A stretch of DNA of 64,000 nt from an uncultured Methanosarcinales archaeon (GCA_964637115.1 CAZWVL010000004.1:9879-73878), one strand, 5' to 3'; counted from the stretch's first letter, positions 5,488-21,455 are shown. Notes: generated by a model from the sequence alone, not told the origin. Program-made: numbers and translations.

Positions 5488-5489
5488 CT

Positions 5490-6566: not shown

Positions 6567-6567
6567 T

Positions 6568-7650: not shown

Positions 7651-7651
7651 T

Positions 7652-8770
7652 TTATACCTCCACGTTTACCCATTTACCTTCGTTGTACTGAACAATACGA
7701 ATGGGACGAGTGGCATAATGATTACCGTCGAATGCCACGTGTCCTGCAACACCAGTGTAATCGGTTTCTGCGAGCTTGTCGCGTACGCATTCCTTGGTTA
7801 TTTCAGTGCACTTGCCTGCCGCAATAGAAATCTCGTGCATATTATCATAGGCGACTGCTGCGTCTACAGGACCGACAAGTTTTTTGCCAATGCGTGTTTC
7901 AATTTTCTGCATAAATTCAGCGAGTTTTGGTGTTGGCTGTGCTGGGTTGGCTGCTTGGTCTGCGGCATAAGCGTCTTTGAGAATGCGGTTTTTGTCCAGG
8001 TCCTTGACTGCCATTGGGTTTGCAGATAATGCAGTGCCGATGGGCAGGTATAATTGTGGAACAAAGTCCAGCTCAAGCATTTGTTTGTAAATCATGTTGC
8101 AGTCTGGGGGCCAGCAGACAAGAACAACAGCATCTGGTTGTATGCTCTTGAACTTGGTGACAGAAGTTCGCGCATCAGGGTCATTGCTGAGCTTCATTTC
8201 ATTTGCAACAATAGTACCGCCCTTTGTGACAAATTCTTTTTTGAGTGTTTCAAGACAGTCTGCGCTGAAGTCAGCGTCATTTCCGAGGAAGGCAAGGCGT
8301 TTGTGGCCGTTTTTCAGTGCCGTTTGTCCTAATTGTTTGCATTCATTTGCAGCATCACGCAAATCGCTAAATATCCAGGTGTTCTTTCTCGCATAGGTTG
8401 GGACACCAGTAAACCCGAACAATGGGACTGCATTTTGTTCCGCTACTGCGCTTGCGCCGCCTGTAACAGGCGTTGTTATCGAATAGATAAAGTCGACGCC
8501 ATCCTGCTGTATTAGTTTTGTAGTCGCAGTAGTGCCTTTTGCAGCATTATCTGCATCTTCTAGAATGGTTTGAATCTGCCTGCCGTTGATGCCGCCTGCT
8601 GCATTGATTTCTTCCTTTGCCATTTCAAGGGCTGAAACGACATATTCGCCAATCCAGGCATTTGGCCCGGTCATGGGCGCCACAATGCCGACTTTGTATG
8701 GCTGTGATTCTGTTTGTACGCACGCTGCCAAAAGCAGCAGCGTCAAAATTATCATTATTGTTTGTTTCAT
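7652..8770 (-). CDS. ABC transporter substrate-binding lipoprotein, LivK family (paralog 6)
   Basis: MKQTIMIILTLLLLAAC lipobox; VGIVAPMTGPNAWIGE; EINAAGGINGRQIQ. Confidence 0.85.
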   Translation of the reverse strand: MKQTIMIILTLLLLAACVQTESQPYKVGIVAPMTGPNAWIGEYVVSALEMAKEEINAAGGINGRQIQTILEDADNAAKGTTATTKLIQQDGVDFIYSITTPVTGGASAVAEQNAVPLFGFTGVPTYARKNTWIFSDLRDAANECKQLGQTALKNGHKRLAFLGNDADFSADCLETLKKEFVTKGGTIVANEMKLSNDPDARTSVTKFKSIQPDAVVLVCWPPDCNMIYKQMLELDFVPQLYLPIGTALSANPMAVKDLDKNRILKDAYAADQAANPAQPTPKLAEFMQKIETRIGKKLVGPVDAAVAYDNMHEISIAAGKCTEITKECVRDKLAETDYTGVAGHVAFDGNHYATRPIRIVQYNEGKWVNVEV

Positions 8771-8779
8771 TTTTCCACC

Positions 8780-9820
8780 TCAAAACTCCTTCTTCCACTC
8801 GAGCATGACAGCATGGCTGTCATCCCAGTGATTTGTAATTGGATTTTCGTTCAGATCTGCTTTGTACCAGATACGCAATCCGCTGTTGCCGAGCTCAAAT
8901 CGTAAACCGAGCATTGCACCATTGGTATCAGTTGCAAAGTTTCTTCGATATTCGATGCTCGGCGTAATGTCATTCAAGAATGCAAAGTCACCTATGTTGA
9001 GTGCGCCGCGGATTGATGCTTTTTTATCATGGGTGTAGGTTGCATCAATGCCGTAATCTCCTGTATCTTTGTCTACATAAATTTCGGCGTTGCCGAAGCT
9101 GAATGTTTTGAAGGATAATGGGAATGTTAAATCGCCCAAGACGCTAAGGGTGTTATGGTCCTCGTCATCAACGCCGAACACTTTTGCACGTTGTGCCCAC
9201 TGCTTTGAGCCGAGAGTAATACGGGCTTCTCTGAAATCGTTTTTACCGATTTTAATGTAGCTCCAGAGTGCTGCACCGTCTAATTTCAAGCTGTATGAAG
9301 CGTTTGCTTCCCAGTTGTTTCCGTTGTTAATATGTCCACCGGCGTATACTAAAGAGTCTCCAATTTCTGCTGTTAGCACACCGCTGGAATTGCCTTTGCT
9401 GTCAAATGCTGCTTCTAAGCCGAAATTGTCATCAAGTTTTAATCCGCCGAGCCAGATTACTTTGTGTTCATTGTTTTCTCTGTCTAACACATCAAATTCC
9501 AGTCCTGCAAATCCTTGTTTGGTATTGTATGAGAGGTATGCTTTGCCTTGGTCTAATGTTGCAGTATCGCGCCAGCCGAGATTAAGCCTGAAATTATCAT
9601 AGTAAAGGTCTGCACCTATTGCGGAATTGTCCTTGGAAGTTTCACCCATGACTTTGTTTCCTGCATACGAAACAATAGTCTGAGCTGCTTCATCGTGCCA
9701 TGTTTCTGCGTATACGCGTGTTTCCATTTTGACTGGTTTCACGTCCTGCGCAAACGCTCCAGTATAGAGCGCCAGCGCGGAGAGTGATGTCATCACTGCA
9801 TGTTTGAGTCTCTGTAACAT
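8780..9820 (-). CDS. secreted beta-rich protein with bacterial outer-membrane beta-barrel (porin-like) character
   Basis: Signal peptide MLQRLKHAVMTSLSALALYTGAFA|QD. About 320 aa of alternating-hydrophobic amphipathic strands with G, Y, N and D in the turns. The C-terminus is ...AVMLEWKKEF (terminal aromatic). It is the first gene of the minus-strand SBP operon. The tool ORF uses GTG at 9829. Confidence 0.5.
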   Translation of the reverse strand: MLQRLKHAVMTSLSALALYTGAFAQDVKPVKMETRVYAETWHDEAAQTIVSYAGNKVMGETSKDNSAIGADLYYDNFRLNLGWRDTATLDQGKAYLSYNTKQGFAGLEFDVLDRENNEHKVIWLGGLKLDDNFGLEAAFDSKGNSSGVLTAEIGDSLVYAGGHINNGNNWEANASYSLKLDGAALWSYIKIGKNDFREARITLGSKQWAQRAKVFGVDDEDHNTLSVLGDLTFPLSFKTFSFGNAEIYVDKDTGDYGIDATYTHDKKASIRGALNIGDFAFLNDITPSIEYRRNFATDTNGAMLGLRFELGNSGLRIWYKADLNENPITNHWDDSHAVMLEWKKEF

Positions 9821-9880
9821 TTCCACCACCTATGTTCAGTAGTGACATGAAACTAATTTATACTTTTTTATTAAACTATA

Positions 9881-9948: not shown

Positions 9949-10860
9949 ATGAAAAGAAAAGTTGTCCGGCAGGGCGCGGCGACATTAATGGTCTCCCTGC
10001 CAAGCAAGTGGGCGCATAAAGTGCACCTGAAGAAAGGCGATGAGATTGACATAGAGGAATCCAACGGCAATCTAGTGATTTCCAAGGAAAAAGTTGAGAC
10101 CAAAAAGCAGACCACTATCAACATTTCCAGTTATTCAGAATCTTCTATCCGTGTGGCGCTGTGGAACACGTACCGCGCAGGTTACAGCCGCATTGTTGTT
10201 AATTTTTCTGATGAAAAACAGTACAAAATTGTGAAGGACGTAATTAAAAATTACGTCGTTGGCTTTGATGTTACTAAGAAAGAGAAGAATTCGTGCATTG
10301 TTGAAAATATCACAGAGCCCGCAGAAGAACAATTTGACGTTCTTTTCAGGAAAATCCTGTATAATATCTCTTTGTTAATCAACATTACTGAAGAACGGCT
10401 GAGAAATAAGCAAACGAGCGACAATTATAATGAAATTGTACTGAAAATCCACCAATATGACAACTTTTGTCGTCGGGTGATTGCGAAAAGGAATTTGTCC
10501 GGCAGTGAGGCATATTTGTTATGGTCATTCCTCACGTTGCTAATTCACGGACAGAGAGAACTGTACCATTTAAACAGGTACTTAGATAAGAACAAGGTAA
10601 AATTCACGAATTTTGAATTTTATGGCAAATTGAGAAAAATATTTGATTTATTGAACGAAGGATACGTCAAAAAAGACTTATCAAAATTTGAAAAGATTCA
10701 TGAATTGGAAAAAGATATCCTATATCAGGAATTTTATGGTTTGATTCAGAAAAATCAGAAAGAGAATATAGTGCTTTATCACATTGCTGCTGCAATAAGA
10801 CAGTTTTATTTGTCAGTAAGTCCTTTAGTGGGTCTATTATTGGAATCCAATAAGTCGTAG
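9949..10860 (+). CDS. AbrB/SpoVT-domain plus PhoU-like domain regulator (paralog 1 of 3)
   Basis: N-terminus MKRKVVRQGAATLMVSLPSKWAHKVHLKKGDEIDIEE (AbrB swapped-hairpin pattern) followed by a helical ~250-aa domain. Its 3' end overlaps the convergent kinase gene by 55 nt. The tool start at 9931 is TTG. Confidence 0.6.
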   Translation: MKRKVVRQGAATLMVSLPSKWAHKVHLKKGDEIDIEESNGNLVISKEKVETKKQTTINISSYSESSIRVALWNTYRAGYSRIVVNFSDEKQYKIVKDVIKNYVVGFDVTKKEKNSCIVENITEPAEEQFDVLFRKILYNISLLINITEERLRNKQTSDNYNEIVLKIHQYDNFCRRVIAKRNLSGSEAYLLWSFLTLLIHGQRELYHLNRYLDKNKVKFTNFEFYGKLRKIFDLLNEGYVKKDLSKFEKIHELEKDILYQEFYGLIQKNQKENIVLYHIAAAIRQFYLSVSPLVGLLLESNKS

Positions 10861-12566
10861 TGAATTCTTCCTTCATTGTCAGTTATGTGATACAATGCGA
10901 TTGCCCTGTTAATCAGGTTCCTTTTCGTTCCTGAAAGGAACTCTGAATAGCCTGATATTTCTTGGCCGTTTTTATTTGTTTTAGAATAATTCAGACTGTT
11001 TGCTTTTTTGCGTGCTTCAAATAATTCTTCTTTGTCACAGAAATATTCTGCACTGACATCAGCAAGTGTTTTATTGGTTCCAAGTTGATTTTTTAAATAC
11101 AATATTGCATAGAAACGGTATCTGAATTCATCAGGAGTGGTTTTATCATTAAATTTATTCACAAAATCATTCGGCACTAAAACTGAATTTGTGCGCATTT
11201 CTTTGTACTCATCTTGTTTTAATTTTTCGTCTTCCATGAGAGCGCTGCGCATTATTGAATAACATAAGCGCTTGCTCATTCTCCTCATATCCATTGTATT
11301 GTCAAGTGGGTCTGCAAATATTCCTTTTTTCGCCTCTTTTAACGGATTTTCTTGTTCCTTGATTTGCTTGAAATAGGGAATAAACTGTTCTGCAATGTCA
11401 GAATTTTGTAAAAGATAGTCTAATCCGCTGTCAGGATATATTCCTGTCCTTAAGGTTTCGTGTATTGCAGGTTCTTTGAATCGGTCTGCTTTTTCTTGAA
11501 TCTGCATTAATTTAAGGCCGCCAAAAATACCGGTTATAATACCAGCAATAGTTGTAAAACCTACTGCATATTTCCTGATTTTTTGCCACGGAACAATGCG
11601 CCTGTTGACAGCATCTTCAAAGTCTCCTTCGAAATTAAAATGTGCCATATTATCAATATACTTCGGATGTTGGACACTGAGGCAATTGCGGAGCATTTTT
11701 CTGTATTGTCGTGGAACAAGGGCGAGGCGTTTTTCCAGAGCAGCGTCGTGTTCATCAAGATTGACATTTGCTATTTGCTTGCCATCCTGTTTAAGTGTTG
11801 CTTTGAGTATCTTTCCATCGACGAAAATTGGTGTTCCATCTTCATCAGCTACCAATTCAATTTTAAATAGCGGTTCTCCGGTTAAAGCATAGAACATTGT
11901 TGCACCTAATGCATAAAACTCGCTTTGTATTGTTGCCTTGGCTTCTTTTTTGTCAAGGAGTGCATTGAGTATGTTTGGCGCAGTAAATTGTGTTCCACCT
12001 CTGGTCGGCAGGAATGATTCTGTAATGTCTCCGATTTTACCTGCTGTCTGCAGGTCTGAAAGCTTGGCGCTCTCATCACGTATTCCAATGAGTATATTTG
12101 ATGGCTTGATGTCTCTGTGCAAAAGGCCTTCGCGCCAGTGTAAATGTTTCAAGCCTGCTGCAACTTGAGAGAATATGTATTTGAACTTCTCTGGTTCGTT
12201 TATTTTACCAAATCGAACACGTTGCTCTAACGAAATGGCTTCATAATATTCTTCAACTGTGATTGTCTTGTCGCCCGTCTTGAACGCATCATTAATCTCT
12301 ACAATGTTCGGATGCTTGACTTTGTTCAGTGCTAGGACTTCGCGTTCATCCAGGTCACCTTTTGAGCGGTTAATGGCTGTCGTGATTGAATTCTCATCAA
12401 TGTGCTCTTTGGGAATCTTGACCACACGGACCTTTTCCACGCTGCCGTGCTTGTAAAGTGCTTCGTAAACGTCTCTGGTGTGGCCTTCTCCAAGTTTGCG
12501 AATTATCGTATACCCGTTTTCCTTGAGTAATTGCTCTACTTTAGAGTCGAGTTTAGTTGCTGCCAT
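10806..12566 (-). CDS. Hanks-type Ser/Thr protein kinase, single-pass membrane, with a ~230-aa C-terminal domain beyond the TM
   Basis: GEGHTRDVY...VVK (VAIK-like), catalytic loop HRDIKPSNILI, then one TM segment YAVGFTTIAGIITGIFGGLKL. Confidence 0.85.
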   Translation of the reverse strand: MAATKLDSKVEQLLKENGYTIIRKLGEGHTRDVYEALYKHGSVEKVRVVKIPKEHIDENSITTAINRSKGDLDEREVLALNKVKHPNIVEINDAFKTGDKTITVEEYYEAISLEQRVRFGKINEPEKFKYIFSQVAAGLKHLHWREGLLHRDIKPSNILIGIRDESAKLSDLQTAGKIGDITESFLPTRGGTQFTAPNILNALLDKKEAKATIQSEFYALGATMFYALTGEPLFKIELVADEDGTPIFVDGKILKATLKQDGKQIANVNLDEHDAALEKRLALVPRQYRKMLRNCLSVQHPKYIDNMAHFNFEGDFEDAVNRRIVPWQKIRKYAVGFTTIAGIITGIFGGLKLMQIQEKADRFKEPAIHETLRTGIYPDSGLDYLLQNSDIAEQFIPYFKQIKEQENPLKEAKKGIFADPLDNTMDMRRMSKRLCYSIMRSALMEDEKLKQDEYKEMRTNSVLVPNDFVNKFNDKTTPDEFRYRFYAILYLKNQLGTNKTLADVSAEYFCDKEELFEARKKANSLNYSKTNKNGQEISGYSEFLSGTKRNLINRAIALYHITDNEGRIHYDLLDSNNRPTKGLTDK

Positions 12567-12699
12567 CGTTCTCCTTCAGAAGCTTGTTTACGGCAAATTC
12601 TACAAAATGAGACTTGTTGCGAAAAGCCCCGTTTTGTAGTTTTTCCTCTACCTGCTTGATGGTATTCTCGTCTATGGATATGCTGACTTTGACCTTCAT
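12553..12699 (-). CDS. small ribbon-helix-helix (CopG/Arc-like) DNA-binding protein, 48 aa, overlapping the kinase start
   Basis: Hand-translated: MKVKVSISIDENTIKQVEEKLQNGAFRNKSHFVEFAVNKLLKENDGSN, a strand-helix-helix pattern. Its stop lies 11 nt inside the kinase ORF (ATGGCAGCAACTAA). It is below the 60-aa cutoff of the ORF track. Confidence 0.45.
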   Translation of the reverse strand: MKVKVSISIDENTIKQVEEKLQNGAFRNKSHFVEFAVNKLLKENDGSN

Positions 12700-12795
12700 A
12701 CGGGGTAGTAAGAATTGCCACCTTTATAAACCTTTCTCTTTTTAGCCACTATCAAGTGGTAACATTTATATACAGGTTATACATAACCTATCCAT
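12700..12795. promoter_or_regulatory. divergent promoter/operator region between the RHH-kinase and AbrB-like-kinase operons
   Basis: TATA-like TTTATAAA (~12723) and TTTATATA (~12766). Perfect palindromes CCACT-atca-AGTGG (~12744) and AGGTTAT-ac-ATAACCT (~12774). Confidence 0.45.
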
Positions 12796-12939
12796 ATGAA
12801 ACAGTTCATAATCACCAAGAAGATTGCCAAGCACGGCTCTCAGGCTATTATTGTAGTTCCGAGAGTTCTTGAATCTTATCTAAAGCCAAAGACGTTGGTA
12901 AAATTGACGATTGACGTGTTGGAGGAGCCAGATGAATAA
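12796..12939 (+). CDS. small AbrB/MazE-like protein, 47 aa
   Basis: Hand-translated: MKQFIITKKIAKHGSQAIIVVPRVLESYLKPKTLVKLTIDVLEEPDE. HGSQAIIVVPRVL fits the AbrB/MazE looped-hinge hairpin. Its stop overlaps the ATG of the next ORF (ATGAATAA). Confidence 0.4.
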   Translation: MKQFIITKKIAKHGSQAIIVVPRVLESYLKPKTLVKLTIDVLEEPDE

Positions 12940-13456
12940 TCCTCTAACTATTGACTTCAAACTGCAAAGAGAACATTTTGGTCAACTAATTGATATTGAC
13001 AGAATTGTTTTCCGGCAAGAACCTCATCCTAATCAGGTTGCAATAGCAGAGAGGCGACCTGAATTGTACACGGTTATCAGACGCGGAGACCATGTTGTTG
13101 GCTATGGTTTAGTTTTGCCATTGCGAAAAGCTGCGTTAACGGCTTTGAAAGAAGGAAAAATATGGGAAGATGAACTAAACATCGGCTGTCTAACCGACCG
13201 GTTGCCAGCTGGCTTTTACATTTCTTCAATTGCTGCAATACAAGATGCTTCTGAACGAGAGCGCGCAATGATTGTTGGAAGCACAGTCAGCCCTCCATTC
13301 CGCACACCTTTTGAAACAATTGCAATTCCTATTTCAGAAGCTGGTAACAGAATTTGTAGAAATCTGCTTCGTATGATTCCTGTACGAGCACGCACCGAAG
13401 TGAAAGGAATCGATGGCTATACGCCGACAACATACCAGCGTGGAGGAGCCAAATGA
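12932..13456 (+). CDS. hypothetical protein (174 aa), possibly an acyl-CoA N-acyltransferase-like fold
   Basis: ORF in an operon between the AbrB-like ORF and the APH-like kinase; its stop overlaps the kinase ATG (ATGA). The tool start at 12911 is TTG. The fold call is weak. Confidence 0.4.
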   Translation: MNNPLTIDFKLQREHFGQLIDIDRIVFRQEPHPNQVAIAERRPELYTVIRRGDHVVGYGLVLPLRKAALTALKEGKIWEDELNIGCLTDRLPAGFYISSIAAIQDASERERAMIVGSTVSPPFRTPFETIAIPISEAGNRICRNLLRMIPVRARTEVKGIDGYTPTTYQRGGAK

Positions 13457-15648
13457 AACCGCTTGAACTCCAGCTGAAAGAAATTCTTGGTGTTAAGGAA
13501 TACAACCGTTTTGCAGATACTGTGCTTTTCCCTGCTATCGAGCAGCTTGCTGAGAGCGGAAAGCTGAGCAATTCTGATCTTGCCAAATTGGCTAAATTGA
13601 CAAAGACCTATGGAGCAGGAATTTTTGACGTTGCCGCTTCAGACGTGGGAGAGGCAACCAAGCATAATCTGTCAGACGGCTTCTCAATTATTGCAAAATA
13701 CAAGTTGAATGAGGATTTGGAATTCAATCTGTTCGTGAAGAAATTCAGCGACAAAAAAAGCTTTGACCGGGGTGTTCTCATACAGGAAGAAATTGCGCAG
13801 CATTTGAGAAACACTGATTTGGCAGGCGTCGTTCCAGAACAGCTATATAAAAACCGGGGCAAGCGCATTGTTGTTATGCCGCTGGTCGAGGCAAAATCAC
13901 TCAATGCCGTCTTGCCTGAATCGAAAGACAAGGAAGAATTGCTTAGAAAAACAATAACAGAATATTTGAAAATAACTGATCATATTGGAGCTAAAAAAGT
14001 CTTTGTGCCTCCAAAAAGAAACGCCCTCGGAAAACTCTGGTATGATGATTTCAAACTGCCTTCATTGCAGAATTTCGACAGATTTTTTGCAAAGGGCTTT
14101 GGTGCTGATGAAAAAATTACAGAAAGCTACAAGCAGCACATAGGCAGCCGTTTGAACGGAAATACAGGCGATTTCATCCACGGTGATTTGCACCCAGGCA
14201 ACATTCTGATTAATGACAAGACCCATTTCATAGACTGGGAGCTGGCCGCAAATGGTTTTACTGAATTTGACCTTTACAAATTGTTCACAAAATCCAATGT
14301 GTCTGATGACCTCGAAGACCGTTTGCTTGCATATACTGTTATGACTAAGGAAAAACTGCGTGCAAAGCGCGAAAACAGGCAGCCAGCCAGCGCTGACACG
14401 CACAGATTGCTATTTGAAGCATCTAAGACACGATACAGGTTAAATCAGATTACTCAGGACTTGTTGACTGCTGAACGCTACAACAAGAATGCGCAAAAAG
14501 ATGTAAAACGCCACGACAAACTTGAAAAAATGGCATTAACTGCCTATAATATTGCCCTGCGCCATATAGAAAAAGCTGAAAGTGAGGGAATTCTCAGTGC
14601 TGATTTCAGGCTGACAATTGAAGATTTTGTACAAAAGAACAAGCCATATAACCGTATTAATAATGTTGAATTCGCTCAATTATTGAGCGTATATAATCCT
14701 CACACAACTCTTTCACAGGATAATCTTGTTTCGCACGGCACTGAAATAGGAGCGCCCGTTGACAAAGAATCCAAGCAAAAGAATTTAGAAATTATAAGGA
14801 AGAGTTTGCACAAGAAGGATTGGGGCAAGATTGCAAAACTTGGAATAGCTGCAGCAGTGTTGCTCTGTAGTGCAAGTTATGGTGGACGGAAGTATTTGGA
14901 GAGTGAACTTGCAAGAATAAAACTCGAGGAAAAGGCTAAACAGGAAGACGCCGATAGTTGGTTTAGAAATGATTTCTGCAAAATTTACGAGACGCGTATT
15001 GAGGCTGAGCTGCATGGTGGAAAGATTCGATGGGCTTATACAGAAGCTGACAAGAGACCGTTGGGAAAAGTGCGGTTAATCGAAGATCGTGAGTTGATCA
15101 AAAATACCTGTGACAAGTATAATCTTGACTTACAATTTACCAGGAGAATGTATAAGATAAATGCTGCTTTTGCTAACGTTGAAAATAATAAAATGAGTGA
15201 TAGAGGCATAAATTTCCTTGATCCATATAGATTCGTATATACCAAAGGTTCTGAGGCTGATCATTATGATCCAGTAATCAATCTTGAATTTGGTGCAAAA
15301 AGATTATCGCGATTGTTTGATAAGTATAAAGTGGATAGAAATATGATTAAAAATGGGCATCATGTCAATAATGGCAACGATGCAATAAAGAATAATGATT
15401 CTTCTTTACAACCATTGATTCGGGCATTAAAACAGTTTTATACCTTTCAAAAGAATTATACCGAAGATGAGGAAGATAAAAGATATGAAGAGCAGCTAAG
15501 CGATGATAAAAAATATAATAAAAAGCTTGCACGTGGCGTACGTGAAATCATATACGCCTTGTTGACAAATGGTCCCCAATCTGATTTTAATGGTGATATT
15601 GTATACTTGGAACAATCAGGAATTCCTGACAATTTCATGCGAGAGTAA
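13453..15648 (+). CDS. membrane-anchored APH/choline-kinase-like protein kinase-fold protein (731 aa)
   Basis: Catalytic motif HGDLHPGNILI and IDWE (APH/CAK family), one TM segment (IAKLGIAAAVLLCSASYGG), and a ~250-aa C-terminal domain. Confidence 0.7.
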   Translation: MKPLELQLKEILGVKEYNRFADTVLFPAIEQLAESGKLSNSDLAKLAKLTKTYGAGIFDVAASDVGEATKHNLSDGFSIIAKYKLNEDLEFNLFVKKFSDKKSFDRGVLIQEEIAQHLRNTDLAGVVPEQLYKNRGKRIVVMPLVEAKSLNAVLPESKDKEELLRKTITEYLKITDHIGAKKVFVPPKRNALGKLWYDDFKLPSLQNFDRFFAKGFGADEKITESYKQHIGSRLNGNTGDFIHGDLHPGNILINDKTHFIDWELAANGFTEFDLYKLFTKSNVSDDLEDRLLAYTVMTKEKLRAKRENRQPASADTHRLLFEASKTRYRLNQITQDLLTAERYNKNAQKDVKRHDKLEKMALTAYNIALRHIEKAESEGILSADFRLTIEDFVQKNKPYNRINNVEFAQLLSVYNPHTTLSQDNLVSHGTEIGAPVDKESKQKNLEIIRKSLHKKDWGKIAKLGIAAAVLLCSASYGGRKYLESELARIKLEEKAKQEDADSWFRNDFCKIYETRIEAELHGGKIRWAYTEADKRPLGKVRLIEDRELIKNTCDKYNLDLQFTRRMYKINAAFANVENNKMSDRGINFLDPYRFVYTKGSEADHYDPVINLEFGAKRLSRLFDKYKVDRNMIKNGHHVNNGNDAIKNNDSSLQPLIRALKQFYTFQKNYTEDEEDKRYEEQLSDDKKYNKKLARGVREIIYALLTNGPQSDFNGDIVYLEQSGIPDNFMRE

Positions 15649-16537
15649 GCGTTTGCCCCATCATTCTTACTATTAATTCTGTCATCTCCCGCAAAAAGCG
15701 CAGGACATATGTCTCCTTTGCCGATTTAGTGCTGTTTAGTTTTCTATCGATTTCAAAAGCAATGCTGTCACGCTCTTTTGCGAGTGCAGCTGCTGCTTCA
15801 TACGAGAATTCATAGAATAATCCTTCAAATTTCTTGAAAAGGCGCTGTATTCGGTCATAGAGGGCAATTACCGATGATTCTAATACAACCTTGTTTTTGG
15901 TGATATAGCCGGTCAGCAGCTTGTATTCGTCGCCAAGCTGCTCAAGAAGCATAACAACAGCATACATGACTGGAGTCTTCGAATATTCCGGATACCCATA
16001 TTTGTTTAGAATACGAAAACAATGGTCCGTTACCCTGTTTATGTTGGCTTCCATATCCTCAAGATAGGCGAGGTCTGTTTCTTTTCGTTTTAAGGTTTGA
16101 AGGCTTTCGTCAGCTACGGCGCTTATCATGAAAAATACCCGCCGAAGTATTGGGTCGAATGCGTTTTCAGACACACCCGAAATATCTTTGATGATAAGAT
16201 AATTTTTGCCTTGCTGGATTACTTCCATTCCTATCATTTCCCTGACGCGCTGCTGAATGAGTCTTGCCTTGTTTAACGAGTCAAACTTCACTTCCAGTTC
16301 ATCAACGCCTTCCAAGTATTTTGCAGCAACAATTCTTTTGAGCAAATTGTCAAGCTTGCTTAGATCAATGGTCTCCCGCATATGCTTGGGAACGGTTGGC
16401 GGGGTCATTACAAGCGTCGTATCTTTCTCTTCCAGTTCTATTTCATCACCCGCTTTCAGATTAAGCTTCTTTGTCCACTTGGCAGGCAGTGAAATAGTCA
16501 GTGTTGCCGCTCCCTGCTTGATTATCTTGCGTCGCAT
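15635..16537 (-). CDS. AbrB/SpoVT-domain plus PhoU-like domain regulator (paralog 2 of 3)
   Basis: MRRKIIKQGAATLTISLPAKWTKKLNLKAGDEIELEE. Its 3' end overlaps the convergent APH-like kinase by 14 nt. The tool start at 16558 is TTG. Confidence 0.6.
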   Translation of the reverse strand: MRRKIIKQGAATLTISLPAKWTKKLNLKAGDEIELEEKDTTLVMTPPTVPKHMRETIDLSKLDNLLKRIVAAKYLEGVDELEVKFDSLNKARLIQQRVREMIGMEVIQQGKNYLIIKDISGVSENAFDPILRRVFFMISAVADESLQTLKRKETDLAYLEDMEANINRVTDHCFRILNKYGYPEYSKTPVMYAVVMLLEQLGDEYKLLTGYITKNKVVLESSVIALYDRIQRLFKKFEGLFYEFSYEAAAALAKERDSIAFEIDRKLNSTKSAKETYVLRFLREMTELIVRMMGQTLTLA

Positions 16538-16594
16538 ATCGTCGATAGTCGCTTTCAAGTATATAAATTTTGCCTTTAGAATATAAGAATATGC

Positions 16595-16608: not shown

Positions 16609-16674
16609 TATGAAAAAAGAATATATTTCCGATAAGTTGTCACTTGTAGAGTAAGACAAGATTTGGGTGGTAAA

Positions 16675-17094
16675 ATGAACAAAAGAAACGATAACGGTCA
16701 TGTCAAATATTCACCGGATGCTTCATTAGTTAACAAGCTCAAGGTTGGAGATCATTATACTGAGATTTGGCAAGGTTTGCCCGATCACCCATTCGAGCCT
16801 TCTGCAACAACAGGTGGCAAGTCAGGCTTAAAGTATGAAACAAATGATAAATACGTCTGGGTTACGCCAAATACTGCTCGTGCACTGGAACAAAATCCGG
16901 ATGAAATTCTGTATGCCAGTATTAAGAAATCTAAAGACAAAGAGTATTGCGCCAGATGGGTAGAATCCATCAGCGGAACTTCCTTTGGAAATACTCTTGA
17001 AAGTGCTATTTCTCGAGCTCAAGAACTGAATATCGAAGAGTTACATAACAGAATCGAGAAGGATCGAAGAAAGAAATTGGAGGCCAAAAAATGA
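16675..17094 (+). CDS. hypothetical protein (~139 aa) leading the plus-strand SBP operon
   Basis: ORF whose stop overlaps the ATG of the following SBP gene (ATGA). The tool start is TTG at 16663. Confidence 0.4.
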   Translation: MNKRNDNGHVKYSPDASLVNKLKVGDHYTEIWQGLPDHPFEPSATTGGKSGLKYETNDKYVWVTPNTARALEQNPDEILYASIKKSKDKEYCARWVESISGTSFGNTLESAISRAQELNIEELHNRIEKDRRKKLEAKK

Positions 17095-18176
17095 AAACAG
17101 CAATAATTGCAATTCTAGTGCTGTTTCTAGCAGCATGCGTGCAAATAGAAGAAACAAAGCCATTCAAATTAGGTGCACCACTGCCTTTGACTGGCTCAAA
17201 TGCGTTCTATGGCGACTTTACAAAGTATGGTATAGAGCTTGCTGTTGAAGACATTAACAAAGCAGGCGGAATCAATGGTAGAACAGTCCAGGTTATCTAT
17301 GAAGATACTGCTGGAGATAAGACAAAAGCCACAACCGCGGCACAGAAGCTGATTCACATCGATGGTGTGGACGCTCTTATTACCTCCACGACTCCGATGA
17401 GCGGTGCGATTTCTCCGGTTGCTGAAGAGAACCGCATTCCGTTAATTTATGCTTCTGCAACAAATTCATTCACTATAAACAAAACGTATGTTTTCAAAGA
17501 TTATACAGATGCAGCCGGCATCTGTGAGCTTCTGATGAAACAGGTGAAAAAGGATGGGCATGAAAAAGTGGCCGTCTTTGGTACTGATGCTGAATTTACT
17601 CAGCTTTGTAAGAAAGGAGCAGAAAAAGTTGGAAAACTCAACTCATTTGAGGTTTATCCTGGCGGCGAAACTGATTTCAAAACACAGTTTGCCAAGATTA
17701 AGAATGCTGAAAACACTGCTTTGATTCTTTCGGTGTTCGCTGGAGATTGCCCGCATGCGTACAAGCAGATTCGCGAACTTGGGTTGAAGGCAAAATTGTA
17801 CACAGCTTTCCAGAGTTTTGCGTGCGGCAGTGCCGACAACACAAAAGCAAATGCCGACTTGCTTGAGGGCGCATATGGTGCTGATGTTGCTTTAGATGAA
17901 GAAAGCGATGATCCTGATTTTCTCGCTTTTAAGAAGCGCCTTGATGAAAGAGGCTGGACTACGCAAATTCGCGGAAGCGCCATTATGTACGATAGCACAA
18001 TGGAATTCGCAAAAGCCTTCCAGGATTGCCAAGATGCTCTTTGTGTAGCCAATAATCTCAGAGCTCTGCAGATGAATGGAATTTCTGGACACATCAGTTA
18101 TGGTGGAGACCAGATTGTTGAGCGCGAAATAATGTTGGTGAAATACGAAAACGGCAAATGGAGGAAAGTACAATGA
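17091..18176 (+). CDS. ABC transporter substrate-binding lipoprotein, LivK family (paralog 7)
   Basis: MKTAIIAILVLFLAAC lipobox; LGAPLPLTGSNAFYGD; DINKAGGINGRTVQV. It is the closest paralog to 4399..5487. Confidence 0.85.
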   Translation: MKTAIIAILVLFLAACVQIEETKPFKLGAPLPLTGSNAFYGDFTKYGIELAVEDINKAGGINGRTVQVIYEDTAGDKTKATTAAQKLIHIDGVDALITSTTPMSGAISPVAEENRIPLIYASATNSFTINKTYVFKDYTDAAGICELLMKQVKKDGHEKVAVFGTDAEFTQLCKKGAEKVGKLNSFEVYPGGETDFKTQFAKIKNAENTALILSVFAGDCPHAYKQIRELGLKAKLYTAFQSFACGSADNTKANADLLEGAYGADVALDEESDDPDFLAFKKRLDERGWTTQIRGSAIMYDSTMEFAKAFQDCQDALCVANNLRALQMNGISGHISYGGDQIVEREIMLVKYENGKWRKVQ

Positions 18177-19267
18177 AAACGGCAATATTCACAATAATTG
18201 CATTGCTGCTTTTGGCAGCGTGCGCAACGCAAGAATCAGTACAAACAACGCCTATTGCAAAAGAACCGGCAGTTGTCAAGATTGGGGTAACAGTGCCATT
18301 GACTGGTGATGTTGCATTCTTAGGAGAAGCAACGCGAAATTCCCTCGAATTGGCATTAAAAGAAGTGCAGGGAACAAAATACAAGTACGAGCTTGTGTTT
18401 GAAGATGACAAGCTTGATGCAAAACTGGCTTCCACAACTGCAACTAAATTGATTCAAGTTGACAATGTTGATGCAATCATCAGTTTGAGCTCTGGCACGG
18501 GGAATGTAGTTACCCCTCTTGCCGAGCAGAATAAGGTAATTCACTTTGGCATTGCTTCTGATGCAAATGTTGCAAAAGGAATGTTCAATTTCATCCATTG
18601 GACGCCGCCTGATGAGGAAGCTCGTTTATGGGTGCAAAAAGCACAGGAACATGGCTATAATCGCGTCGCAATTATTGTATTGCAGCATCCAGGTGCAATA
18701 GCAGTGGTTGATGCTGCAAAGAAACACGCAAAAGGTACCGACATCGAACTACATGAGGAGTTCTTTAATCCGGGCGAGAAGGATTTCAGAACAGTTCTGG
18801 TCAGGTCCAAGCAATTTAATCCTGATGCTTATATGCTCATGGCGTTCTCTCCTGAACTTGACATATTGCACAAGCAGTTGAAGGAATTAGGCATTAAGGC
18901 ACCTTTGACATCCATCGAGGCATTCGAACTTAGCAATGACCCTTCTCAGTTTGAAGGTCACTGGTATGTCAACGCTGCAGACCCGACAGGCGCATTTGCT
19001 GACAAGTATAAGGCTGCGTACAACAAAGAGCCGGTATTTGGCGGACCAAATGCATACGACATCTTCAAGATGATCGTGAAAGGCTTTGAGGATTCAGGCA
19101 AAGATGCATCTGTAAAACCTTCACCTGAAGAAGTTGCTGCTGCACTTATGCAGATAAAGGACTTCGATGGTGCACTGGGCAAATTGACTGTCGGCGAAGA
19201 TGGTATTGTCTGGAGCCCGGCAGTTGTCAGAACGATTCTGAACGGCAAGCCGGTGACTATCAAATAG
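18173..19267 (+). CDS. ABC transporter substrate-binding lipoprotein, LivK family (paralog 8)
   Basis: MKTAIFTIIALLLLAAC lipobox; IGVTVPLTGDVAFLGE. ATGA overlap with the preceding SBP gene. Confidence 0.85.
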   Translation: MKTAIFTIIALLLLAACATQESVQTTPIAKEPAVVKIGVTVPLTGDVAFLGEATRNSLELALKEVQGTKYKYELVFEDDKLDAKLASTTATKLIQVDNVDAIISLSSGTGNVVTPLAEQNKVIHFGIASDANVAKGMFNFIHWTPPDEEARLWVQKAQEHGYNRVAIIVLQHPGAIAVVDAAKKHAKGTDIELHEEFFNPGEKDFRTVLVRSKQFNPDAYMLMAFSPELDILHKQLKELGIKAPLTSIEAFELSNDPSQFEGHWYVNAADPTGAFADKYKAAYNKEPVFGGPNAYDIFKMIVKGFEDSGKDASVKPSPEEVAAALMQIKDFDGALGKLTVGEDGIVWSPAVVRTILNGKPVTIK

Positions 19268-19292
19268 TTTTTTCTTTTTATGAGGAAGCAAA

Positions 19293-19725: not shown

Positions 19726-20598
19726 ATGGGCATCGCAACGCAGTTAATATTGAACGGTATCATTGCGGGCGCCATATACGCGTTGGTTGCGTCTGGGTTC
19801 TCATTAATCTACTCTGTTACCAAATTTATGCATTTGGCGCACGGTGGAGTGTTGGCGTTAGGCGCCTATCTTATGTACACTTTCGCTGTTGCAAGTGGAT
19901 TGAACTTCTGGTTTGCCATTCTGCTGACATTAATCTGCAGCAGCGTTGCAGGAGAATTGATGAATTGGTTGGTCTACAAGCCTTTGAGAAAACGTAAGGC
20001 TTCTGGTGCAGTATTATTAATAGCAAGCATTGCTGTATTAATATTCGTTAACTCGTTGATTCTCGCCGTCTGGGGTGCTGATGTGAAGACCATTCACACC
20101 AGAAACCCTGTTTTTGACTTTATTGGTGCCAGAATCACTTTTATTCAAGTCACAATCATTATTGTCTCTGTAATTCTTCTTTTATGCTTGTGGTATTTGA
20201 TGAAAAAAACAAAATTGGGCAAGGCAATGCGTGCTGTTGCTGACAACAAGGATGTTGCGCAGACTGTTGGCATTAATCCAGAGAGAATTTACACATATAC
20301 TTTCCTTATTGGCAGTTTTTTGGCTGGTGTTGCCGGAATTCTTATTGGAATCGAACAGAATTTGTTTCCAACAATGGGCCTTTCATTAGTTATTAAGGGA
20401 TTTACTGGTGCAGTTATTGGCTCTTTGGCATCTGTTCCTGGCGCAGTATTGGGCTCATTCATTCTTGGTCTGGTGGAAAACATCGGCATCTGGTGGCTTC
20501 CGTCTGGTTACAAGGATGCAATTGCCTTCGTATTATTGTTCATTTTCCTCTTATTCAGGCCTTCCGGCCTATTGGGCGTTAAAGTGAGGGAGGCTTAA
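19726..20598 (+). CDS. livH: branched-chain amino acid ABC transporter permease (LivH-like)
   Basis: Polytopic membrane protein with LivH/BPD-transport-2 topology. It sits in the operon order permease, permease, ATPase, ATPase. Confidence 0.85.
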   Translation: MGIATQLILNGIIAGAIYALVASGFSLIYSVTKFMHLAHGGVLALGAYLMYTFAVASGLNFWFAILLTLICSSVAGELMNWLVYKPLRKRKASGAVLLIASIAVLIFVNSLILAVWGADVKTIHTRNPVFDFIGARITFIQVTIIIVSVILLLCLWYLMKKTKLGKAMRAVADNKDVAQTVGINPERIYTYTFLIGSFLAGVAGILIGIEQNLFPTMGLSLVIKGFTGAVIGSLASVPGAVLGSFILGLVENIGIWWLPSGYKDAIAFVLLFIFLLFRPSGLLGVKVREA

Positions 20599-21455
20599 TG
20601 GCATTTGTAAATTATCTGATTCATCTTGGAATTTTGGCGGCAATTTATAGTATTCTCACAATTAGTTTGAACTGGGCTGTTGGTTTTACTGGCTTGCTTA
20701 ATCTTGGCCATGTTGGATTTTTTGGTATCGGCGCTTATGTGAGCGCTCTATTAGCTATTAATGGTGTCCCTGTCTGGATTAGTATTATTATTGGCGGTCT
20801 TGCAGGCTTGATTGCTGGTTTCTTGCTTTCCCTGCCTACTTCAAGGTTGAAAGGTGATTATCTTGCTCTGGCAACGCTTGGTTTTTCGTTTATCATGGGA
20901 AGTATTGCAAGAAACTGGACTGATGTTACAAGAGGCGCGTTAGGTATTCCTGGCATTCCTAAGATTGTGAGAGGTAATACAGAGTTTCTCGTCGTTGTTT
21001 TGATTGTTGCAGTTATTACTTATTTCATCTTCTGGAAATTATCGCGTTCAAGATTTGGAAAGACGTGTGAAGCAGTTAGAGATGACGAATTGGCTGCAAG
21101 AATGCTTGGAAAAAATACTTTTATGACGAAAATTATGGCTTTGGGCATTAGTGCGTTTTTTGCCGGCATTGCTGGAGGTTTATTTGCGCATTACATTACT
21201 TTTATCGACCCGTCTATTTTCGGTATTGATGACTTGATTTTACTTTTCAGCATGTTGATTGTGGGCGGTCTTGCCAGTGTGAAAGGCGCTGCTTTCGGCA
21301 CGATTATTATTTTCTTGATTCCTGAGCCTTTGCGCTTTATCGGCTTCCCCAGTTCTGTGCTTGGTCCAATGCGTGCAATTATCTACGCGTTAATCTTGTT
21401 ATTAATCCTTATCTATAAGCCAAGAGGCTTATTTGGGAAGGTGGATTTGGCATGA
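20598..21455 (+). CDS. livM: branched-chain amino acid ABC transporter permease (LivM-like)
   Basis: Second polytopic permease; ATGA-style overlap with the previous gene. Confidence 0.85.
   Translation: MAFVNYLIHLGILAAIYSILTISLNWAVGFTGLLNLGHVGFFGIGAYVSALLAINGVPVWISIIIGGLAGLIAGFLLSLPTSRLKGDYLALATLGFSFIMGSIARNWTDVTRGALGIPGIPKIVRGNTEFLVVVLIVAVITYFIFWKLSRSRFGKTCEAVRDDELAARMLGKNTFMTKIMALGISAFFAGIAGGLFAHYITFIDPSIFGIDDLILLFSMLIVGGLASVKGAAFGTIIIFLIPEPLRFIGFPSSVLGPMRAIIYALILLLILIYKPRGLFGKVDLA

Follow-up and report, generated by a model that had tools for sequence, protein, structure and literature searches.

A small open reading frame (ORF) of 47 codons, followed with overlaps by an ORF of 174 codons and by a gene for a 731-aa kinase-like protein, raises the question of whether a compact archaeal operon of this kind is a toxin–antitoxin (TA) system or serves some other function. 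The first-pass annotation had read the layout as TA-like. The operon was studied in its surroundings within a window of 64,000 nucleotides, i.e., the whole stretch of DNA that was analysed, and in related loci (numbered L001, L002 and so on) from other genomes. We lean towards the reading that it is a chromosomal, self-regulated membrane-kinase signalling operon, in an archaeon most probably of the Woesearchaeota/Nanoarchaeota (DPANN) type, and not an addiction module.

Anatomy of the operon and its neighbourhood

The genes and elements considered below are as follows.

4399-8770, minus strand: four more ORFs of a size similar to that of the binding proteins listed below; the nearest two are Peripla_BP_6 proteins in the identical locus L001
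9949-12699: sister module, a mirror image of the operon, comprising the next three genes
9949-10860, plus strand: AbrB-N paralogue of 303 aa, convergent with the Hanks kinase gene (55-nt tail overlap)
10806-12566, minus strand: Hanks kinase of 586 aa, with a transmembrane (TM) helix at aa 333-353
12553-12699, minus strand: RHH gene, 48 aa
12796-12939, plus strand: mini-ORF, first gene of the operon, 47 aa, from a large uncharacterised small-protein family
12921-12935, plus strand: coupling junction 1, GGAGGAGCCAGATGA, an SD-like GGAGG and a start codon inside the 3' end of the mini-ORF
12932-13456, plus strand: gene of a divergent 174-aa protein of predicted GNAT fold, a lineage-specific insert that separates mini-ORF and kinase gene
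13442-13456, plus strand: coupling junction 2, ...GGAGGAGCCAAATGA, almost the same sequence as junction 1
13453-15648, plus strand: APH/ePK-like kinase of 731 aa (Pfam APH), core at aa 94-291 (nt 13732-14325)
14179-14202, plus strand: catalytic HGDLHPGN motif of the kinase (aa 243-250); Asp261 is the Mg-binding residue
14824-14886, plus strand: Ala-rich hydrophobic stretch of the kinase (aa ~458-478), below the Kyte-Doolittle threshold
15635-16558, minus strand: R, an AbrB-N and PhoU-like regulator of 307 aa (PF04014, E 6.1e-9), convergent with the kinase gene (14-nt 3' overlap)
17091-19267, plus strand: two LIV-type substrate-binding proteins (context)
19726-22851, plus strand: ABC permease and ATPase genes (context)

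The three overlapping ORFs of the first-pass annotation are present at these positions, the mini-ORF with the sequence quoted there, and their coupled anatomy was confirmed. The mini-ORF and the 174-aa ORF overlap by ATGAATAA (8 nt) at a junction ending in ...GGAGGAGCCAGATGAATAA, where the ATG lies at 12932-12934 and the stop codon TAA of the mini-ORF at 12937-12939; the 174-aa ORF and the kinase ORF share ATGA (4 nt), with the ATG at 13453 and the stop codon TGA at 13454-13456. The 174-aa ORF is counted here from the ATG at 12932, and a mechanical ORF list has it from a TTG at 12911, as 181 aa. The operon is also divergent from an RHH-kinase pair, as had been claimed, the kinase of this pair being of the Hanks type.

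The APH/choline-kinase fold proposed for the 731-aa protein was borne out by the Pfam APH model PF01636 (aa 94-291, E 7.6e-11, 42.7 bits against a cut-off of 23.2) and by a weaker Choline_kinase match. The alignment of the kinase family shows no exchange at K96, D245 or D261 and hardly any at H243 and N250; among 46 proteins whose genes lie downstream of mini-ORFs, conservation of D245, N250 and D261 reaches 90% or more. By its motifs, the kinase appears catalytically competent. The label "membrane" stood only in part: the Ala-rich stretch exists, but it scores too low to be called a TM helix on the Kyte-Doolittle scale. A clear central TM helix was found in 27 of 45 sister kinases, which are 500–840 aa long. 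The window's kinase also contains a helical region of ~170 aa and, behind the hydrophobic stretch, a C-terminal domain of ~250 aa.

The mini-ORF family and its partners

The product of the mini-ORF belongs to a family with the consensus ..FxITKKIAKHGSQAIIVIPRxLExxLKPGTIVxLTIDVLE, which numbers at least 3,480 clusters, all annotated as "hypothetical" and without a Pfam domain. Species-representative archaeal metagenome-assembled genomes (MAGs) gave 114 matches, labelled mostly as Woesearchaeota, Pacearchaeota or Nanoarchaeota. Between loci, the mini-protein is 89–100% identical while the DNA of the same loci is only 77–90% identical, so the ORFs are beyond chance. The mini-ORF appears to be under purifying selection, with 11–26 synonymous and 1–5 non-synonymous codon changes per locus pair. 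Because it is conserved, the lack of conservation that the first-pass annotation had named as part of the grounds against its own reading does not apply. About 12 tandem-fused forms of 100–116 aa are compatible with a dimer and may hint at one.

The same annotation had called the mini-ORF AbrB/MazE-like, and this assignment found no statistically significant match to AbrB models in its favour. Searches of Pfam and NCBIfam with the window's mini-protein gave nothing at E ≤ 1, including PF04014 and TIGR01439; PF04014 was matched by just 7 of 80 family members, weakly (best E 0.006), and by none of the tandem-fused forms except one at E 0.14. With an HMM built from 30 neighbouring AbrB-N domains, the mini-proteins score no better than shuffled sequences. 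An hhalign comparison with AbrB gave E 0.044 and a probability of 1.2%, though in the canonical register. An AbrB fold is, thus, unsupported by the PF04014 scan, by the HMM of neighbouring AbrB domains and by hhalign, and significant similarity of the mini-protein to DNA-binding domains was looked for and not found. The AbrB (MazE-type swapped-hairpin) fold has the topology β1-β2-α-β3-β4 and is an obligate dimer. By eye, the mini-protein seems to lack one strand of a complete AbrB domain.

A neighbourhood survey covered 80 species-level mini-ORF loci. A large downstream ORF, defined as one of at least 450 aa, follows the mini-ORF in 45 of them, with a start/stop overlap in most. Proteins encoded downstream, the window's included, are kinases in 40 of 46 cases (30 Pkinase and 10 APH). 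At least 28 of those 45 large ORFs are followed by a convergent, usually overlapping gene for an AbrB-PhoU-like protein of ~300 aa. A large ORF is missing behind the mini-ORF in the remaining 35 loci, so the mini-protein is not obligatorily linked to a kinase. In relatives with a kinase identity of only 42–44%, the mini-ORF abuts the kinase gene directly (L012, L015), and an AlaE gene is the middle gene in L014, between mini-ORF and kinase, and in L019. It follows from L012, L015 and L014 that the middle gene is variable and the frame of mini-ORF, kinase and convergent R is constant.

All APH-kinase loci examined have R behind the kinase gene. The PF04014 domain was found in all 30 aligned members of the R family, the window copies included (E 6e-9 and 6e-7); PhoU was detected in 6 of the 30 and not in the window copies, and a PDB profile search was uninformative. 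The 307-aa and 303-aa paralogues are 28% identical (E 2e-31). Their architecture may be that of archaeal AbrB-N and PhoU-type proteins, often annotated as "phosphate uptake regulator PhoU", with a putative PhoU part; R differs from these in its fixed convergent pairing with a kinase gene, and no description of such a usually overlapping pairing was found in the literature searched. The divergent arrangement of RHH gene and mini-ORF was seen again in L017, L020 and L072.

The locus is syntenic inside an amino-acid ABC-transporter cluster, even in genomes with kinase identity of 42–44%, and relatives sought in 2.9 million viral contigs were not found. Because of this conserved synteny and the absence of viral relatives, the operon is read as chromosomal and not mobile. 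The pair of APH-kinase and R genes also lies amid Peripla_BP_6 genes in L005, L007 and L012-L016, and 5 of 26 genes adjoining R encode Peripla_BP_6 proteins; judging from gene order, the link to amino-acid uptake is limited to the APH-type subclade.

The first-pass annotation had left the nature of the 174-aa protein open, with GNAT as one possibility. This was sustained at the level of the fold and not at that of curated GNAT sequence models. According to structure modelling, the protein has a GNAT fold, and its nearest folds are the GNAT-like decarboxylases of polyketide synthases and N-terminal acetyltransferases. Identity to these proteins (the GNAT-like loading/decarboxylase domains of CurA, GphF and SxtA, and the archaeal and eukaryotic acetyltransferases Ard1, Naa30 and Naa50) is 7–14%, and the 174-aa protein differs from them in an extra helix between β3 and β4 and in the family-specific residues D23, P43, Y46, G57, Y58, P63, G75, E79, Y96, S99 and G138. 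It lacks the motif A pyrophosphate loop Q/R-x-x-G-x-G/A (β4-α3), residues 107–112 being S-E-R-E-R-A; family-wide, the canonical Gly position is E, L or I, and only the last small residue (A, G or S) is retained. Only 1 of 45 family members matched Acetyltransf_1 (E 0.0036), a few remote fusion proteins of the family overlap this model weakly, a PDB profile search with the family gave nothing at E ≤ 10, and the protein itself had no match in Pfam, NCBIfam or PADLOC.

Its gene adjoins the mini-ORF in just 1 of the 80 species-level loci. The most distant of seven close homologues (L010, 53% identical) stands alone among housekeeping genes, and in L009 and L011 the protein is coupled to Hanks kinases. 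Junction 2, a near-copy of junction 1, is probably the footprint of a gene insertion; the duplicated junction occurs also in L005 and L007, and a remnant of it is left in L002. This last locus consists of the mini-ORF and the 174-aa gene only, with the kinase start fused to the 3' end of a binding-protein gene, an arrangement that reads as a secondary deletion.

The control region and a model of the operon

The following elements lie between the two divergent operons.

12723-12736, minus strand: putative promoter of the RHH-kinase operon, with a palindromic TATA box, TTTATAAA, at 12723-12730 and a BRE-like GAAAGG
12746-12759: palindrome P1, CCACTATCAAGTGG, with ACT-N4-AGT as its core, flanked by the two back-to-back promoters
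12765-12772, plus strand: TATA box of the mini-ORF operon, TTTATATA, 24 nt before the ATG, putative promoter
12778-12796, plus strand: paired 8-bp boxes P2, candidate operator, with TATACATA at 12778-12785 and TATCCATA at 12789-12796

Given the distance of its TATA box from the start codon, the mRNA of the mini-ORF operon would be leaderless or nearly so; this element is kept in L005, L009, L011 and most of 58 mini-ORF promoters. On the minus strand, the TATA box of the RHH operon is situated 24 nt from the RHH ATG at 12699, with the purine-rich GAAAGG (12731-12736) upstream of it, and the consensus GAAAGGTTTATAAA, as in this promoter, heads most mini-ORF promoters of related loci. The core of P1 was found in 30 of 58 mini-ORF promoters and in 51 of 451 control upstream regions, and the other spacings are rare (N3 in only 2 and N5 in only 1 of the 58); in L009 and L011, the palindrome is preserved by paired changes.

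The boxes of P2 are placed against the mini-ORF ATG, 11 bp from start to start; by chance, the window would be expected to contain 0.10 occurrences of the pair pattern. In mini-ORF operons, the promoter has two boxes (TATGTATA/TATACATA) exactly 11 bp apart between TATA and ATG, and the exact 8-bp box is present in 46 of 58 such promoters against 16 of 460 controls. Conversely, among 50 box pairs with this spacing in ~1 Mb, 36 are located 12–52 nt upstream of a mini-ORF ATG, and most of the others head operons containing a coupled mini-ORF. Boxes are also present at mini-ORF operons without a kinase or R (L053, L071, L075, L085).

In the signalling operon that we favour, the BRE/TATA promoter would give a leaderless tricistronic mRNA for the mini-protein, the GNAT-like protein and the kinase, and the stop/start overlaps after GGAGG, which are seen directly, would couple translation of the three genes. 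A dimer of the mini-protein may bind the two boxes, which lie a helical turn from each other and would cover the transcription start, and repress its own operon, so that kinase dosage would stay low. The mini-protein is proposed as autorepressor because the boxes track the mini-ORF, the protein is near-invariant like the boxes, and tandem-fused doubles exist. Anchored in the membrane and with its C-terminal domain facing outward, a topology to which the window copy itself points weakly, the kinase would then work as a receptor kinase. From synteny, its likely targets would be the convergent R, the mini-protein or both, and these proteins could control the neighbouring amino-acid-uptake genes. 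The GNAT-fold protein would be a recent, clade-specific accessory inserted at the junction of mini-ORF and kinase; without the acetyl-CoA loop typical of GNAT proteins, it might either draw on a different acyl donor or serve as a non-catalytic partner. The divergent unit of RHH, Hanks kinase and AbrB/PhoU genes would represent a second module of the same design with a shared control region.

In Bacillus subtilis, the Hanks-type kinases PrkC, PrkD and YabT phosphorylate the transition-state regulator AbrB. In our model, as there, a eukaryote-like kinase in the membrane, equipped with a sensor domain on the outside, would act together with small DNA-binding proteins of the AbrB type. The archaeal system differs in that kinase and regulators form a fixed gene cassette with many copies per genome, a third partner of 45–50 aa is translationally coupled before the kinase, and Hanks and APH types share the same slot.

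Competing explanations and biological meaning

That the operon is a type II TA-like system, with the mini-protein as an AbrB/MazE-type antitoxin and autorepressor and with the GNAT protein or the kinase as toxin, seems to us very improbable. Its appeal lies in a small first gene overlapping a gene for a GNAT-fold protein of ~170 aa, in a promoter repeat that resembles the operators of autoregulated TA operons, in the multiple copies per genome (five loci from one MAG and four from another) and in L002, where mini-ORF and GNAT gene occur alone. However, L002 is a deletion derivative, the GNAT family is so rarely found beside the mini-ORF, with the L010 homologue standing solo, and none of the operon's three products matched a toxin, antitoxin or defence model in PADLOC, NCBIfam or Pfam, where the APH kinase gave only generic APH/kinase families. 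Most kinases of this large size have a TM helix and an outer domain, synteny outlasts the divergence of the kinases while downstream partners vary, and the family is absent from viral contigs. The conserved unit is the mini-ORF with a large kinase and a convergent AbrB-PhoU-like gene, and not a small antitoxin with a small toxin. Known TA systems share some features with it. HipBA consists of the small DNA-binding autorepressor HipB and the kinase toxin HipA, and likewise has a small first gene overlapping the kinase gene and operator repeats over the promoter. The kinases here are large and mostly transmembrane, and no HipA family stands among the matches listed for the two kinases of the window (E up to 1) or among the 25 families shown, of 36 that the 46 downstream proteins matched at E ≤ 0.001. 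Unlike HipBA, moreover, the locus lies in conserved chromosomal synteny and includes a convergent regulator as third gene. In TacAT and AtaRT, a small upstream antitoxin gene overlaps that of a GNAT protein of ~170 aa that acetylates aminoacyl-tRNA. The TacA-TacT, AtaR-AtaT and KacA-KacT pairs resemble our operon in this overlap, but the 174-aa protein has neither the canonical acetyl-CoA loop nor a match to GNAT Pfam models, and the mini-protein is normally coupled to kinases and not to GNAT proteins. An ordinary metabolic operon is somewhat less far-fetched, yet also improbable: an APH-fold small-molecule kinase (choline, methylthioribose (MTR) or aminoglycoside type) and a GNAT small-molecule acyltransferase would process some amino-acid-related compound taken up from outside, with the mini-protein as no more than a local repressor. 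In sequence, the kinase core indeed comes closest to small-molecule kinases, namely spectinomycin phosphotransferase (1.1e-6) and choline kinase, both matched in a PDB profile search, and MTR kinase; the LIV-type ABC cluster surrounds the locus, AlaE occurs in L014 and L019, and a PLP enzyme gene lies nearby in L002, L005 and L007. Against it, bona fide Hanks kinases take the place after the mini-ORF three times as often as APH proteins do, with R following too, the 731-aa protein has extra domains that soluble small-molecule kinases of ~300 aa do not have, and the GNAT protein is itself coupled to Hanks kinases in L009 and L011.

A closer competitor, in our opinion rather unlikely, concerns the mini-protein itself, which may not bind DNA but act as a universal small subunit, adaptor or phospho-acceptor of the kinases, or pair up with the AbrB domain of R. 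The boxes could then be bound by some other factor or be a specialised, perhaps lineage-specific, core-promoter element. Eleven positions are invariant across the 80 loci, and paralogues are near-identical though the kinases behind them share only 10–38% identity with that of the window, as if the protein were contacting a conserved surface; the near-invariance of the mini-protein ahead of such unlike kinases is explained equally well by a shared protein partner and by a shared operator. The conserved Thr7, Ser/Asn15, Thr33 and Thr38 are possible phospho-sites, translational coupling would lead to roughly stoichiometric co-production, and the lack of similarity to DNA-binding domains points the same way. 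On the other hand, many mini-ORFs have no large ORF behind them and several of these still have boxes, the boxes are tied to the mini-ORF far more tightly than to any other gene, and the simplest account is an invariant protein matched to an invariant DNA motif.

Returning to the self-regulated signalling operon, its duplicated coupling junction provides an example of a new gene spliced into a coupled operon without breaking the coupling. DPANN-type archaea have to sense and answer their surroundings or hosts with tiny genomes of mostly "hypothetical" annotation. The recurrent cassette of mini-protein, receptor-type Ser/Thr or APH kinase and AbrB-PhoU regulator, with a clear cis-element, offers a testable handle on kinase signalling in archaea. 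Metagenomes contain thousands of members of the mini-protein family, which has neither a Pfam model nor a name; describing it would improve the annotation of the superphylum. As a tentative possibility, put forward with less confidence than the reading of this single operon, the mini-protein may represent a new family of DNA-binding mini-regulators, which together with the boxes, the kinases and the AbrB-PhoU proteins would form the main modular, multi-copy signalling system of Woesearchaeota-, Pacearchaeota- and Nanoarchaeota-type archaea. If this is true, phosphorylation by the kinase would switch the mini-regulator, the AbrB-PhoU protein or both, GNAT-like inserts would add an acylation input, and the mini-regulator cassette would be the counterpart of bacterial two-component systems in reduced genomes.

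Gene organization and the divergent neighbour module

The three plus-strand genes were found at the positions given by the first-pass annotation, and the protein of the 47-aa mini-ORF is exactly the sequence reported there. Both junctions were read directly from the window sequence and bear out the claimed overlaps: in ATGAATAA the 174-aa ORF begins before the mini-ORF has ended, in ATGA the kinase start codon shares bases with the 174-aa ORF stop, and GGAGGAG lies upstream of each overlap. The 731-aa protein is an APH-fold kinase as had been described (Pfam APH above threshold, aa 94–291, E 7.6e-11; Choline_kinase weakly), and the divergent ribbon-helix-helix (RHH)–kinase pair is also present. 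The operon anatomy is thus confirmed. The word 'membrane' for the APH kinase was not, since the hydrophobic stretch at aa ~458–478 is below the hydropathy threshold used.

Features of the two modules in the window (genes from ORF calls; promoter elements from the window sequence)
9949–10860: convergent AbrB-N gene, 303 aa; 55-nt tail overlap with the Hanks kinase
10806–12566, minus strand: Hanks-type kinase, 586 aa; TM helix at aa 333–353 (hydropathy analysis)
12553–12699, minus strand: RHH, 48 aa; a small protein of DNA-binding type, whose gene comes first and overlaps the kinase start
12723–12730: TATA box of the RHH operon (minus-strand promoter)
12746–12759: P1 palindrome, CCACTATCAAGTGG, between the promoters
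12765–12772: TATA box of the mini-ORF
12778–12785: box 1, TATACATA
12789–12796: box 2, TATCCATA
12796: ATG of the mini-ORF
12796–12939, plus strand: mini-ORF, 47 aa
12932–13456, plus strand: 174-aa ORF, ATG at 12932
13453–15648, plus strand: APH kinase, 731 aa
15635–16558: R, the convergent AbrB-N/PhoU-like gene; 14-nt tail overlap with the APH kinase

The minus-strand unit shares the design of mini-ORF, kinase and R, and the two modules are read in opposite directions from a common 96-bp control region. Its 303-aa AbrB-N protein is a paralogue of the R behind the APH kinase (28% identical). Of the 80 mini-ORF loci analysed, 8 contain an RHH homologue, and the divergent RHH/mini-ORF layout is found again in three of the related loci (L017, L020 and L072). 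The RHH protein is weakly like the haloarchaeal regulator CdrS (NCBIfam E 3.4e-4).

Both kinase modules are flanked by six paralogous-looking ORFs of ~360–370 aa (4399–8770, minus strand; 17091–19267, plus strand), and in the identical locus L001 the nearest four belong to the LIV-type binding proteins (Peripla_BP_6). Binding-protein genes are multiple in the relatives too, where as many as four or five stand side by side, and genes of a PLP-dependent enzyme and AlaE are present or absent depending on the relative. A 143-aa ORF (orf143; 16663–17094, plus strand) lies between R and the binding-protein genes and is absent from L005 and L007. The 349-aa ORF at 8780–9829 (minus strand) has a signal-peptide-like N-terminus, a C-terminal ...LEWKKEF and alternating Gly/Tyr/Asn/Asp-rich stretches that recall beta-barrel proteins of outer membranes, which would be odd for an archaeal genome; its gene call in L001 has no Pfam match on record, and a similar-sized Pfam-less ORF stands at the same position in L002. 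An Rfam scan of the window found no RNA family, and the mini-ORF, the 174-aa ORF and orf143 gave nothing above threshold against Pfam, NCBIfam and PADLOC.

The mini-protein family and its paired promoter boxes

The mini-ORF, on whose conservation the first-pass annotation had made its reading depend, encodes a near-identical protein across diverged DNA. In the contigs of seven close homologues of the 174-aa protein, it lies upstream of the 174-aa ORF at all loci but the most distant one; between the close-homologue loci its DNA is 77–90% and its protein 89–100% identical. The differences fall mostly in the third codon position, with 11–26 synonymous against 1–5 non-synonymous codon changes per pair, so the mini-ORF codes for a protein that is kept by strong purifying selection and varies less than the adjacent 174-aa protein (53–84% identical). 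In L005, a ~90-nt insert with hairpin-like repeats (5772–5864) separates the conserved promoter and boxes from the ATG, so that gene callers lengthen the mini-ORF to 78 aa.

An alignment scan with one genome per species gave 114 confirmed relatives, the best 80 of which make up the locus set analysed. Most carrier MAGs are labelled Candidatus Woesearchaeota, Pacearchaeota, Nanoarchaeota or Nanoarchaeia; the remaining ones are named 'archaeon', 'uncultured archaeon' or, in several TPA MAGs, 'uncultured Methanosarcinales'. The last label is carried by the closest relatives of the window (L017–L020, L024 and other TPA MAG records), for which it may be a taxonomic mis-assignment. The mini-ORF can be multi-copy within a genome, with five loci in MAG STD1_118 and four in CAZYZS01. 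Eleven positions are invariant over the 80 loci, and the consensus reads ..FxITKKIAKHGSQAIIVIPRxLExxLKPGTIVxLTIDVLE. A profile search of a 5.8-billion-protein collection, in which 8,000 candidates were scored, yielded at least 3,480 clusters at E<=1e-3, all without a Pfam domain and, two evidently spurious JGI labels aside, unnamed or 'hypothetical'. No relative was found among 2.9 million viral contigs. About a dozen of these clusters, from several metagenomes, are tandem-fused mini-proteins of 100–116 aa (P0101–P0112), and another such fusion lies within one MAG (L055, 3653–3979); these natural fusions suggest that the mini-protein works as a dimer. A 567-aa 'member' of one mini-ORF cluster (P0093) proved to be an unrelated histidine-kinase-like sequence, a clustering artefact and not a fusion.

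By eye, the mini-protein looks similar to a domain of the AbrB type (K-I-x-K-x-G ... I-x-V/I-P ... L-K-P-x-T-x-V-x-L), and the first-pass annotation had called it AbrB/MazE-like. This assignment was not confirmed by any of the tests applied. Alignment of the family with the AbrB domains of neighbouring R proteins by hhalign is in the AbrB register at E 0.044 and a probability of 1.2%; the window protein has no match in Pfam or NCBIfam, PF04014 touches 7 of 80 family members with a best E of 0.006, and the tandem forms gave a single PF04014 match (E 0.14) and nothing else in the Pfam scan. Against an HMM of 30 genuine AbrB-N domains, real mini-proteins score no higher than shuffled ones, and a PDB profile search with the family returned nothing informative. 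As all the AbrB-fold tests were non-significant, the mini-protein is not classed as AbrB here, and 'AbrB-like' may serve as a lead only.

The 110 nt upstream of all mini-ORFs were lined up, with control upstream regions drawn from the same loci. Mini-ORF promoters have a strong archaeal BRE/TATA consensus, GAAAGGTTTATAAA, and between the TATA box and the ATG an 8-bp box (TATGTATA or its complement TATACATA) appears twice, the copies being direct or inverted repeats of each other and almost always spaced by exactly 11 bp. Of 58 mini-ORF promoters, 46 contain the exact box, against 16 of 460 control regions; all 22 mini-ORFs coupled to an upstream gene lack it. Across the whole ~1 Mb there are 50 box pairs, 36 of which lie 12–52 nt upstream of a mini-ORF ATG; most of the others head operons with the mini-ORF as a coupled internal gene. 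In the window, 0.10 occurrences of the box-pair pattern are expected by chance. The sole other exact TATGTATA in the window (42503–42510) has no partner box and agrees with the 1.3 occurrences expected by chance. P1, an ACT-N4-AGT palindrome in the upstream alignment, is found in 30 of 58 mini-ORF promoters vs 51 of 451 controls, N3 and N5 spacings being nearly absent. Each of the two TATA boxes in the control region is located 24 nt from its ATG, so both divergent transcripts would be leaderless.

Kinases, R and the 174-aa middle gene

A protein search detected only seven relatives of the APH-type kinase. In L012/L013 and L015/L016, where the kinases are 42–44% identical to that of the window, the mini-ORF directly overlaps the kinase start, and in L014 an AlaE gene lies between them; the 174-aa ORF occurs in none of the contexts L012–L016. 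Behind the kinase in every one of these contexts comes a ~300-aa gene that is convergent with it, overlaps its tail and encodes an AbrB domain at the N-terminus, and all of these units sit among genes of LIV-type substrate-binding proteins and ABC permeases. The constant frame is therefore mini-ORF, kinase and convergent R, with a variable middle gene. The proposal that the gene divergent from R always encodes a substrate-binding protein was rejected, being true of 5 of 26 cases only.

The mini-ORF is statistically associated with kinases and R, as with the paired boxes. In 45 of the 80 loci, an ORF of at least 450 aa follows it directly or one small gene later, as a rule with a start overlapping the mini-ORF stop (called ORFs). 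A Pfam scan of 46 such large proteins, the window's included, assigned 30 to Pkinase and 10 to APH. The convergent ~300-aa gene follows the large ORF in at least 28 of 45 loci; all 30 aligned R members, both window copies included, match SpoVT/AbrB and six match PhoU, and a PDB profile search with this family gave nothing informative. Of the 45 large proteins, 27 have the layout of receptor kinases, in which the kinase domain is followed by one hydrophobic helix in a central position. The catalytic Asp, the Asn and the Mg-binding Asp are at least 90% conserved over both kinase types, and K96, D245 and D261 are invariant in the APH subfamily. Mini-ORF loci without a large kinase have mixed downstream genes, including binding proteins, AlaE, two small kinases, radical-SAM enzymes and many unknowns.

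The C-terminal domains of the two window kinases have no mutual similarity. That of the APH kinase (14887–15645, aa ~480–731, presumably extracytoplasmic) weakly matches the SLT lytic transglycosylase (E 0.029), a reading dropped because the match is too weak; SLT matches at E<1e-3 occur in 2 of the 46 downstream proteins, both sister kinases. Such a resemblance could hint at glycan or cell-wall sensing.

The middle gene of the window belongs to a family that is an orphan by sequence. A search of 5.8 billion proteins gave no more than seven close homologues of the 174-aa protein, 44 of 45 family members are without a Pfam match, and a PDB profile search gave nothing informative. With the seven homologues AlphaFold reached a pLDDT of 73 only; after the addition of remote relatives (57 at E<=1e-3 in an exhaustive profile search of 1.84 billion representatives), it gave pLDDT 96.1 and pTM 0.91, and in this predicted structure the first-pass guess of a GNAT protein was right at the level of the fold. 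The acetyl-CoA pyrophosphate loop Q/R-x-x-G-x-G/A reads S-E-R-E-R-A in the window protein, with E, L or I at the Gly position family-wide, which makes its catalytic competence as an acetyltransferase doubtful.

Co-occurrence of this gene with kinases, which the first-pass annotation had proposed to examine, holds within a narrow clade, where it lies 5' of APH kinases (window, L005, L007) or of Hanks kinases (L009, L011), and does not extend to the wider set, in which the family adjoins the mini-ORF in one of 80 species-level loci (L017, the contig of L002). A near-identical 15-nt junction, GGAGGAGCCA(A/G)ATGA, stands at both ends of the gene (12921–12935 and 13442–13456); L005 and L007 have it in duplicate as well, and it is similar to the junction of L015, where mini-ORF and kinase meet directly. 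This suggests that the 174-aa gene entered the operon at the coupling junction and that the junction was duplicated in that event.

A probable signalling operon and alternative readings

The best-supported reading of these coupled and conserved genes, with their kinase motifs and GNAT fold, is an autoregulated receptor-kinase signalling operon. The mini-protein, as a dimer, would bind the boxes, each subunit contacting one of them and both from the same side of the DNA; the kinases would sense something outside the cell; R and/or the mini-protein would be the kinase substrates.

From the three-gene layout, the first-pass annotation had drawn a toxin-antitoxin-like function, which is graded unlikely. 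L002 is the only locus with 'mini + GNAT' and no kinase. In this 84%-identical relative, ~5.8 kb comprising the kinase, R, orf143, two binding-protein genes and a 128-aa ORF are gone. The deletion joins the kinase start-codon region (window 13453) to the last binding-protein codons: a few codons past the junction, L002 (6520–6600) continues as a homologue of the second binding-protein gene of the window, at its 3' end (~19226–19282), and the permease promoter comes after the fused 3' end. L002 is thus a secondary deletion derivative, and an independent two-gene unit was rejected. Another alternative is that the mini-protein acts as a kinase subunit or substrate and does not bind DNA. Its gene is coupled directly to kinase starts in several loci, and box pairs are also found at mini-ORF operons without kinase or R (L053, L071, L075, L085), which indicates that the boxes track the mini-ORF itself; we consider this alternative less probable than DNA binding, but a serious one.

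The components of the proposed signalling operon are of known kinds, namely Hanks and APH kinases, AbrB-PhoU proteins and the GNAT fold, and in Bacillus AbrB-type regulators are under kinase control. Full-text literature searches on AbrB and kinases in DPANN/Woesearchaeota and on archaeal AbrB, PhoU and kinases turned up nothing relevant to this module. The mini-protein family, the paired-box element, the fixed three-part cassette and its multiplicity in DPANN-type archaea appear undescribed, and the output of the operon would be control of the adjacent uptake genes.
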